DNA of 64,000 nt, from positions 1,378,004-1,442,003 of the forward strand of contig CAVUKC010000002.1 of assembly GCA_963741965.1 (NCBI GenBank), in the 5' to 3' direction. Positions 10,739 through 12,608 of this stretch are shown one piece after another. The notes under the pieces are model-generated. The model was not told where the DNA came from and searched no databases. It saw nothing but the letters and a program-made list of their open reading frames with translations. The translations under genes were made by a program, and so were the position numbers. The DNA is from an uncultured Chloroflexia bacterium (GTDB lineage Bacteria; Chloroflexota; Chloroflexia; Thermomicrobiales; UBA6265). The first letter of the stretch is position 1. Every line of letters starts with the position of its first letter.

Positions 10739-12121
10739 ATGCCATCCGGTCCACGTGATCCCGTTCCACCGATCGACAAGGATGATCCAGAGGGGAGTAG
10801 TGACGCATTCCGCCTGAACCGCCGCAACCTCGTCCAGTGGAGCGGTGCCGCGGCTCTCGGAGCCGCAAGCATGCGCCCCGCATCGGCGCAGGAAGCGACT
10901 CCGGAGGCGACGCCAGCGGATGCTGCCGCTCCCACCCCTGAGCCACCGGAACCCGCCACCACCGCCCCGTGGACGCGCGAAGGGGTGCAGGGGCCGGCGC
11001 TGCCGCCGGATGTGCCACCGTGGATGCAGAACTGGGGTCCGCTGCCGTCCGAGTACGGCGAACGCTCGCCCTACGAAAACGGTGTGGTTCGAAGCCCGGG
11101 CTCGACCTCGAGCCGCTCGCCTCTCGCGGATCTCCACGGCACCATGACGCCCAACAGCCTCTTCTTCGAGCGGCTCCACTCCGGCACTCCGGAAATCGAT
11201 CCGACGCGTCACCGATTGATGGTCCACGGCATGGTCGACACGCCGACCATCTACACGATGGACGACCTCAAGCGGTTCCCCGCGGTCTCCATGATCCACT
11301 TCCATGAGTGCTCGGGCAATTCGGGCAGCGAGTGGACCGAGGATTCCATCGCCCCTAACGTCCAGGAGGGCTTTGGGCTCGTCAGCCAGACAGAGTGGAC
11401 CGGCGTACCGGTGAAGACGGTTCTGCAGGAGGTCGGCCTCCAGGCGGATGCTACCTGGGTGCTGGCCGAAGGAGCGGACGCCGCAGGCATGGACCGCAGC
11501 ATTCCCATCGAGAAGGCGCTGGACGACGCACTCCTCGCCTATGCGATGAACGGCGAGGCACTCCGGCCCGCCAACGGCTACCCGCTCCGCCTGGTCCTGC
11601 CAGGCTGGGAGGGCAACTCGAACATCAAGTGGCTGCGACGCCTGAAGGCCGGCGATGGACCGTGGGAAACACGCGAGGAAACCTCCAAGTACACGGATCT
11701 GATGCCCGACGGCACAGCGCGGCAGTTCACGTTCGTGATGGAGGCCAAGTCAGTGATCACGAACCCCTCGGGCGGACAAACGATCTCCAGCAGGGGGTTC
11801 CACGAGATCACGGGTATTGCATGGTCAGGTCGCGGCAAGATCACCAGAGTCGAGATTTCAACGGACGGTGGAGAGACGTGGGAGGACGCCACGCTGCAGG
11901 AGCCGGTTCGCTCCATCGCGCTCACCCGCTTCCGCTATCCATGGATGTGGGACGGCCAAGCGGCACGCCTCCAGAGCCGGGCGACAGATGAGACCGGCTA
12001 TGTCCAGCCCACGATGCAGCAGCTTGTCGACGTTCGCGGCACCAATTCCACCTACCACATGAACGGCATCAAGTCGTGGGCCGTGAGTGAGAATGGGGAG
12101 GTCACCAGTGCTTGGGGATAA
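10739..12121 (+). CDS. Molybdopterin sulfite dehydrogenase/oxidase family, SoxC/SorA-like, Tat-exported
   Basis: Twin-arginine motif NRRNLVQW plus ...ASA cleavage site. Contains FFERLHSGTPEIDPTRHRLMVHGMVD and HFHECSGNSG (Mo-ligand Cys). RBS GAAGGAGA precedes ATG 10739. Confidence 0.85.
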   Translation: MPSGPRDPVPPIDKDDPEGSSDAFRLNRRNLVQWSGAAALGAASMRPASAQEATPEATPADAAAPTPEPPEPATTAPWTREGVQGPALPPDVPPWMQNWGPLPSEYGERSPYENGVVRSPGSTSSRSPLADLHGTMTPNSLFFERLHSGTPEIDPTRHRLMVHGMVDTPTIYTMDDLKRFPAVSMIHFHECSGNSGSEWTEDSIAPNVQEGFGLVSQTEWTGVPVKTVLQEVGLQADATWVLAEGADAAGMDRSIPIEKALDDALLAYAMNGEALRPANGYPLRLVLPGWEGNSNIKWLRRLKAGDGPWETREETSKYTDLMPDGTARQFTFVMEAKSVITNPSGGQTISSRGFHEITGIAWSGRGKITRVEISTDGGETWEDATLQEPVRSIALTRFRYPWMWDGQAARLQSRATDETGYVQPTMQQLVDVRGTNSTYHMNGIKSWAVSENGEVTSAWG

Positions 12122-12608
12122 CACAACGCAGTTTGGCTTCGGCGAGCCCGCGTCGGAAGAGCAGATCGCTGGCTGGGACATCGACGTGAAGCCCGATGGC
12201 ACAGGCCTGCCGCAAGGTAGCGGCACTGTCGCGGATGGCAAGAAGCTCTTCCAACAATACGGCGCCGCCTGGCACGGCGCGGAGGGCGAAGGCACCGACT
12301 ATGCCCCACGGCTGGTGGGCGGTATCGGATCGCTGGACACTGACTCGCCAGTGAAGACGGTCGGCAGCTACTGGCCCTATGCAACATCGGTGTTCGACTT
12401 CATCCGTCGCGCCATGCCCGCAAGCGCGCCGCAGACCCTGACCGACGATGAGTACTATGCCCTGACGGCATGGTTGCTCTGGGCGAACGGCATCATCTCG
12501 GAGGACGAGGTGATGGATCAGGACACGCTGCCCAAGGTCGTGATGCCGAACCGGGATGGTTTCACGAGCCCGGACCCACGCCCCGACACGGAGAACGCCT
12601 CCAGCTAG
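12108..12608 (+). CDS. SoxD/SorB-like cytochrome-c-fold subunit with degenerate haem-binding site (GAAWH instead of CXXCH)
   Basis: GTG 12108 has GGGGAGG 7 nt upstream and overlaps the end of the upstream gene. Family blocks seen: [40 protein letters not shown]. There is no signal peptide. Confidence 0.7.
   Translation: [166 protein letters not shown]

Follow-up and report, generated by a model that had tools for sequence, protein, structure and literature searches.

In SoxCD of Paracoccus pantotrophus, the SoxD subunit reportedly binds its haem c covalently, is made with a signal peptide of its own and contains a second haem domain, and in the published structure (PDB 2XTS) its N-terminal arm is said to wrap around SoxC, the molybdenum (Mo) subunit. 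Outside the sox gene cluster, "paralogous" SoxCD have been described as stand-alone pairs with a short, single-domain SoxD that form a group distinct from in-cluster SoxCD (PMC13500833); that paper mentions neither Chloroflexota nor loss of the haem motif. Here, we analyzed a soxCD-like gene pair on a 64-kb stretch of DNA (hereafter the window; contig CAVUKC010000002.1) from an uncultured Chloroflexia bacterium (Thermomicrobiales), in which the soxD-like gene encodes a protein with no cysteine and no leader of its own. We consider it probable, though well short of assured, that the pair forms a stand-alone SoxCD-like Mo sulfite (or sulfane) dehydrogenase whose SoxD would be loaded non-covalently with haem b in the cytoplasm, the folded complex then being exported by the twin-arginine translocation (Tat) pathway. 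The features on which this rests are as follows.

12108-12608, forward strand: soxD-like gene for a leaderless, Cys-free protein of 166 residues, with one class-I cytochrome c fold domain that includes the SoxD N-terminal arm (from sequence, Pfam, 2xts_B and a structure model).
12095-12101, forward strand: GGGGAGG, a Shine-Dalgarno-like sequence within the end of soxC, 6 nucleotides upstream of the GTG at 12108 (read from the sequence).
12261-12275, forward strand: codons 52-56, GGC GCC GCC TGG CAC, for G52-A-A-W55-H56 in the CXXCH column (from the 2xts_B alignment and clade comparison).
12414-12416, forward strand: codon for Met103 in R-A-M-P, the presumed distal haem ligand (aligned to 2xts_B "hrsMPf").
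10703-12121, forward strand: soxC-like gene for the molybdopterin subunit (from TIGR04555, Pfam domains and the 2xts_A match).
10811-10888, forward strand: putative Tat signal region of SoxC, RLNRRNLVQWSGAAALGAASMRPASA, with the twin-arginine codons at 10820-10825 (from the motif and its conservation in the clade).

An earlier note on this DNA had reported the GTG, the GGGGAGG and the five codons of the motif, and its coordinates and codons proved exact.

The window protein resembles SoxD over its whole length. In a phmmer search against PDB, its match to Paracoccus SoxD (2xts_B) spanned 154 residues (16-169) with E=2.6e-42, and the Pfam Cytochrom_C model (PF00034) gave 27.6 bits, above its cutoff of 21.3 bits. 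In the phmmer alignment, "nCasCHg" of 2xts_B shared its columns with "yGAAWHg", and "hrsMPf" with "rrAMPa". The AlphaFold model had a mean predicted local distance difference test score (pLDDT) of 69, with core helices above 90; when it was used as a Foldseek query, the top PDB match was again 2xts_B (E=1e-15, TM-score 0.69, 47% identity over 156 aligned columns), followed by TsdA and cytochromes cL and c6. The protein thus combines homology to the SoxD haem-1 domain in full-length sequence and fold, N-terminal arm included, with a class-I cytochrome c fold, the His and Met axial ligands (His56 being the presumed proximal one) and a gene position directly downstream of soxC with translational coupling. 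Judged by its sequence, the open reading frame (ORF) is a SoxD-type homologue that is missing two canonical SoxD features, the CXXCH attachment motif for haem c and an N-terminal export signal of its own. With no cysteine in 166 residues available for a thioether, the protein cannot be a c-type cytochrome by definition; its database relatives are named "c-type cytochrome". The cytochrome c fold that the earlier note had proposed, and its placing of GAAWH in the CXXCH column, are both borne out by these comparisons.

We observed that no signal peptide can be encoded upstream of the soxD start, in agreement with what the earlier note had said of a Sec signal. The codon at 12084-12086 in the soxD frame is TGA, and the longest possible extension, from a GTG at 12087, adds only seven non-hydrophobic residues (MRMGRSP). 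A longer ORF with a hidden leader was thereby ruled out, and in several relatives a stop lies one codon before the start. The start at 12108 is supported by homologues that begin with M/V-LGDN. Since soxC ends with a TAA at 12119-12121, the two genes overlap by 14 nucleotides in different frames, and the same 14-nucleotide overlap was seen in L001 and L002, the two relatives with called genes.

The partner subunit is a SoxC. Counted from the ATG at 10703 it has 472 residues, although the real start may lie further in. It scored 565.8 bits with the equivalog model TIGR04555 (sulfite_DH_soxC; cutoff 420), contains both the Oxidored_molyb and the Mo-co_dimer domains of Pfam, and resembles Paracoccus SoxC (2xts_A, E=2.5e-104) down to the Cys that ligates Mo, which lies in "fhECSGNsg". 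SorA (2BLF) matched it at E=8e-36; the NCBIfam SorA model gave 166.6 bits against a cutoff of 600, and the SorT model was also far below its cutoff. A SorB identity for the cytochrome-like subunit was rejected, as no sequence match was found. The pair is therefore of the SoxCD type and not of the SorAB type, so that of the earlier description as SoxD/SorB-like, the SoxD part stands and the SorB part does not.

SoxC also bears the sole export signal in the soxCD operon. Its twin-arginine motif, RLNRRNLVQW (RRNLV), is followed by an Ala/Gly-rich hydrophobic (h-) region; Pfam TAT_signal matched weakly at residues 38-55 (E=0.043, under the cutoff). Across the clade, R-x-x-R-R-x-[FLA] and the Ala/Gly-rich hydrophobic stretch were intact in SoxC of 15/17 loci, window included, and an AxA-like end was kept as well, though sequence identity in this region is low. 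The Tat signal that the earlier note had ascribed to the Mo subunit is thus matched by a motif that recurs in relatives. Both exceptions are frameshifted metagenome-assembled genomes (MAGs): in L007 the motif lies in another frame, and in L019 it was not recovered. Frameshifts within soxC or soxD were seen in the MAG or long-read assemblies L007, L019 and L085, which makes the public protein N-termini from these three unreliable. In the window (10703-11000, forward strand), a polar n-region of ~36 residues precedes the twin arginines; because it is so long, the true start of SoxC may be the ATG at 10739. The signal leads into a low-complexity linker rich in Pro, Thr, Ala and Glu, EATPEATPADAAAPTPEPPEPATTAP. 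Comparable linkers occur in other SoxC proteins of the clade and may serve as a tether in a monoderm envelope.

To see how widely this state is shared, we compared the 120 closest database relatives of the window SoxD (62-93% identity; those with a named source are labelled Thermomicrobiales) with 140 full-length canonical SoxD representatives. Position 52 was Gly in 120/120 relatives versus Cys in 140/140 canonical representatives, and position 55 was only ever C, W, F or H in the clade. The CXXCH column read GAxCH in 56 relatives, GAAWH or GAGWH in 39, GAPFH, GAAFH or GAKFH in 23 and GAxHH in 2, and CxxCH in none of the 120. The earlier note had said that TGC codons in orthologues would speak against its reading; no TGC codon was found at the first-Cys position, where Gly is clade-wide and tied to leader loss. 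In a search of 1.84 billion representatives (50% identity clusters), the clade was reduced to one full-length representative and two fragments, and the score fell from 274 to 182 bits at the next match beyond it.

The same division was seen among loci from GTDB species representatives. Sixteen were leaderless with G-A-x-[C/W/H]-H, all from Thermomicrobiales, Sphaerobacteraceae or "Chloroflexia" MAGs, often with an in-frame stop one codon 5' of the soxD start; fifteen of them came from the motif scan, and the sixteenth, L013, was read as GAKCH in the printed sequence. All of the other 64 loci (Proteobacteria, Entotheonella and Myxococcaceae; mostly Proteobacteria) had CxxCH together with a hydrophobic leader. 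Clade proteins have 4-15 residues ahead of the FGFG arm, and a hydrophobic run of 12 residues on the N-terminal side of the arm was present in 0/121 of them versus 122/140 canonical representatives. Seven CxxCH representatives had very short N-termini, and six were looked up (P0145 was left out). Four of these were rejected as leaderless CxxCH SoxD: lipoprotein leaders lay upstream of the called start in P0196 and P0241, P0260 had a normal leader, and P0194 had an assembly frameshift. For P0231, at a contig edge, and P0173, on a degraded contig, the leader state was not decided. Among the compared SoxD proteins, the leader and the first Cys have thus been lost together, without a confirmed exception.

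Two further observations concern the CxxCH homologues. Lipoprotein-type leaders with LAAC and VGGC lipoboxes had been missed by gene callers at L084 2734-3492 and L087 2432-3022, so that the public protein starts there are wrong; on these other contigs, a lipoprotein leader on a CxxCH SoxD is an alternative way of anchoring the cytochrome subunit. P0121, a 599-residue member of the representative library, has two SoxD-like modules with three CxxCH motifs, and ranked top because two stretches matched.

We then followed the order of cysteine loss in a neighbour-joining tree made with the five motif columns removed. GAxCH forms made up the basal grade of the clade, and a nested lineage ran from GAPCH through GAPFH and GAAFH to GAAWH, with the window gene in the most derived, GAAWH subclade. 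Independent losses of the second Cys were placed at the HH pair P0092/P0104 and at P0095 (F). By this placement the second Cys was lost at least three times, each time to an aromatic residue (F, W or H). Read in this way, cysteine loss would have been stepwise, with the first Cys lost together with the leader and the second later and repeatedly. Between Cys-less genes, the ratio of nonsynonymous to synonymous substitution rates (dN/dS) was 0.05-0.14, with dS near or above 1, and the Gly52 codon varied synonymously across genomes (GGC, GGT, GGG and GGA); codon comparison thus indicates that soxD of the window is under strong purifying selection.

Many of the relatives that keep Cys55 have a further cysteine elsewhere. 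Cys at position 120, seen in GAxCH-group relatives among P0059-P0120, was present in 42/56 proteins with Cys55, in none of the 65 whose residue 55 is W, F or H, and in 4/140 canonical representatives. It lies in helix 113-126, which reads "YALCAYLL" in these proteins versus "YALTAWLL" in the window SoxD (Thr120 codon at 12465-12467). This covariation suggests that in these relatives Cys120 may either pair with Cys55 in a disulfide or supply a second, non-canonical thioether to haem. The covariation does not extend to the window protein, yet it bears on the course of the transition.

The putative haem pocket of the clade has stayed close to that of canonical SoxD. His56, Pro67, Leu69, Trp89, Arg101, Met103, Pro104, Tyr117 and Leu124 were invariant in the clade, and all of these except Pro67 are also conserved residues of canonical haem-binding SoxD; the earlier note's remark that the His and the "AMP" Met are kept thus extends to every relative, and Met103 is 99% conserved in canonical SoxD. 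The N-terminal arm common to all SoxD proteins is conserved as well. Clade-specific changes were few (Gly52, Thr63, Ala66, Ala105 and Thr153/Ser154). One of these, Ala105 (codon 12420-12422), directly follows the distal Met-Pro and is Ala in 97% of the clade versus Phe, Tyr, Leu or Met in canonical SoxD, a pocket change that accompanies first-Cys loss. The invariance of His56, Met103 and the pocket argues for haem that is still held via His/Met, and against a haem-free relic, while the conserved arm together with the pocket pattern argues that the complex with SoxC has been maintained. The pattern of conservation therefore suggests that non-covalent haem is to be favored over no haem in the window SoxD.

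How might such a subunit be made? The starting points, read directly, are homology, the motif state, the absence of a leader, the twin-arginine motif of SoxC, conservation across the clade and purifying selection; from these we infer that haem b is bound, that the complex assembles in the cytoplasm and leaves together via Tat, and what its substrate is. In bacterial systems I and II, haem is attached covalently to an unfolded, Sec-exported apocytochrome at the membrane's outer face (PMC3601427, PMC3884852). We reasoned that the SoxD lineage would first have lost its own Sec or lipoprotein leader; a leaderless SoxD would be barred from the system I/II route, which would make the CXXCH cysteines useless. 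The first Cys would then have become Gly, and the second, later, an aromatic residue (Trp in the window) able to pack against a haem vinyl group. In the cytoplasm, haem b would be taken up non-covalently in the His56/Met103 pocket, and SoxD would dock via its N-terminal arm onto SoxC already loaded with Mo cofactor. The folded, cofactor-loaded SoxCD would be exported by the SoxC twin-arginine signal, a form of hitch-hiking for which the elements, a signal-less SoxD and a SoxC partner with such a signal, are both in place. Outside the membrane, electrons from Mo would be passed on via SoxD to an acceptor. Chloroflexi are regarded as monoderm (PMC5808234), and in such an envelope assembly before export would spare two soluble subunits from having to meet outside the cell. 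In vitro, a thioether can arise spontaneously in cytochromes that have just one Cys (PMC9599503), and the GAxCH retained by basal relatives may be explained by this chemistry of a lone Cys.

Several points weigh against this scheme. The Tat signal scores below the Pfam cutoff, and its function is assumed from motif and conservation; confidence in the SoxD model is only moderate, and the model is haem-free. Basal relatives retain the Cys beside the His, often with Cys120, so the clade may have kept some covalent chemistry, and the ancestral rationale may be less simple than the scheme allows. The GAxCH plus Cys120 relatives, with their hint of residual thioether or disulfide chemistry, and the spontaneous reaction of single-Cys cytochromes in vitro (PMC9599503) also lend something to a rival in which haem is bound covalently, possibly through a non-cysteine link, or loaded outside, with apo-SoxD leaving by Tat hitch-hiking or an unrecognized route. 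For the window protein this is improbable, as it has no Cys and no possible leader, and the known maturation systems require a Cys-containing motif on an unfolded Sec substrate (PMC3601427, PMC3884852). The low Pfam score also bears on the location of the complex. Together with the long n-region before the twin arginines and the unusual Pro/Thr-rich linker after them, it could mean that this region of SoxC is not a functional signal, the whole SoxCD staying in the cytoplasm with SoxD as a cytoplasmic b-type cytochrome. We regard this as very unlikely, given that RR-x-[FLA], the Ala/Gly-rich h-region and the AxA-like end are kept in 15 of the 17 clade loci and that, to our knowledge, all characterized SoxC/SorA enzymes are extracytoplasmic.

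Somewhat more room, though still not much, is left for a SoxD that binds no haem at all and is co-exported as a structural subunit, its arm shaping the substrate channel while Mo electrons leave directly to an external acceptor. Haem-less cytochrome-c-like domains occur elsewhere, for example in quinol-dependent NO reductase, and here both attachment cysteines are gone and no acceptor has been identified. However, His56, Met103 (in RAMP), Pro104, Trp89, Tyr117 and Leu124 are invariant despite divergence to ~62% identity, the second Cys has been swapped only for aromatics, which is non-random, and the low dN/dS (0.05-0.14) holds over the whole domain. An error of sequencing or assembly, or a decaying pseudogene, could be imagined since each Cys codon is one substitution from the codon observed, but this is refuted to the point of being negligible by the recurrence of the state in 120/120 relatives and 16 species genomes, by the synonymous Gly codons and by purifying selection.

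The surroundings of the pair bear on its reading as a stand-alone SoxCD. The neighbors in the window are pyrF-like, L,D-transpeptidase, ParA and IMPDH genes; no sox cluster genes (soxYZ, soxAX or soxB) lie beside soxCD, nor were any found among the called neighbors in L001 and L002. The earlier note had allowed that a separate canonical cytochrome c might be the real electron acceptor. A scan of the whole 64-kb window turned up no CxxCH cytochrome ORF, and in the 18 clade loci none of the genes flanking soxCD encodes a cytochrome c. Housekeeping neighbors and the lack of a CxxCH cytochrome in 64 kb make this an out-of-cluster soxCD pair: it has the SoxC equivalog that marks in-cluster SoxCD, the Sox-pathway sulfane dehydrogenase, but not the location in a sox cluster. 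Given this out-of-cluster context, the substrate is probably sulfite. A promoter and terminator scan of 10500-12900 gave nothing exceeding shuffled expectation. Elsewhere in the window, the only long ORF with a C..CH match is a 710-residue open frame at 43497-45629 on the forward strand (listed as ORF 43530-45629, 699 residues), whose CHWCH belongs to a protein resembling a thioredoxin-domain protein and not a cytochrome. Two reverse-strand ORFs, at 2358-4703 (781 residues) and 16485-17813 (442 residues), had no Pfam match at E<=1e-5 and are possibly spurious (the window is 66% G+C) or uncharacterized genes.

The reason for covalent haem attachment in cytochromes c is a long-standing question that has been tackled mainly with engineered mutants. 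Nothing in the literature searched in full text, with incomplete coverage, described a SoxD that lacks cysteines or a leader, a class-I cytochrome c fold that is naturally b-type, or a Tat hitch-hiker with a cytochrome c fold. On whether the clade represents a natural, stepwise c-type to b-type conversion within the class-I fold, driven by the switch from an own leader to Tat hitch-hiking, we are evenly balanced. The steps of such a conversion would run from CxxCH with a leader, through leaderless GxxCH (often with the co-varying Cys120), to leaderless Gxx[F/W/H]H. If true, SoxD of the clade would be the first case shown of a cytochrome c fold that is completed with its haem in the cytoplasm and then exported folded, and would offer a natural test of the reason for covalent attachment: the clade supplies selected natural variants of one enzyme at two, one and zero cysteines, with a homologous structure solved, so that stability, redox potential and biogenesis could be directly compared. 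The reading further implies that a haem b subunit with a cytochrome c fold would form a new class of Tat cargo, and it suggests how monoderm Chloroflexota put together two-subunit extracytoplasmic redox enzymes. For annotation, the automated labels "c-type cytochrome" and "SoxD" are chemically wrong for Cys-free members, and motif-based counts of cytochromes c in metagenomes will miss them.

Among known systems, the window protein is closest to Paracoccus SoxD (2XTS chain B), with which it shares the N-terminal arm FGxG...WDIDVxPDGxGLP, the His/Met positions, and the gene order and overlap with soxC. It differs from it in having GAAWH in place of CASCH, no Cys, no leader, a single domain and no sox genes nearby. 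The canonical representatives and non-Thermomicrobiales loci that we examined, without sorting by sox context, likewise differ, as every one has CxxCH and almost every one a leader. In its setting the pair is most like the out-of-cluster SoxCD, with a likely role in sulfite oxidation rather than in oxidation of SoxY-bound sulfane. SorAB of Starkeya novella (PDB 2BLF) offers a parallel in its Tat-exported Mo subunit and small mono-haem cytochrome subunit, but is a separate subfamily with covalent haem c.

For the haem state, the nearest model is cytochrome c552 of Hydrogenobacter thermophilus, a soluble electron carrier. Its engineered C10A/C13A form remains stable as a b-type cytochrome, with backbone dynamics that closely resemble those of the original (PMC4451467). 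By analogy, the window SoxD would be a class-I fold that holds haem non-covalently by His/Met; unlike the laboratory mutant, the change in its clade is natural and clade-fixed, uses Gly and Trp, Phe or His and not Ala, and is paired with loss of the export signal. The basal GAxCH forms recall the mitochondrial cytochromes c of Euglenozoa, which have a single-Cys A/FXXCH motif (PMC8262978), in that the first Cys is lost and the Cys adjoining the His is kept. The Euglenozoa proteins, however, have a dedicated maturation system and one thioether, whereas the clade proteins are leaderless and the window SoxD is without the second Cys too. Tat hitch-hikers and Tat-exported haem b proteins are both known, with hydrogenase large subunits and E. 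coli EfeB/YcdB as examples. Overall, our comparisons support a SoxD that resembles such hitch-hikers, being a signal-less subunit with a twin-arginine signal on its partner, and that, by analogy with them, would be assembled in the cytoplasm and carried out by SoxC.

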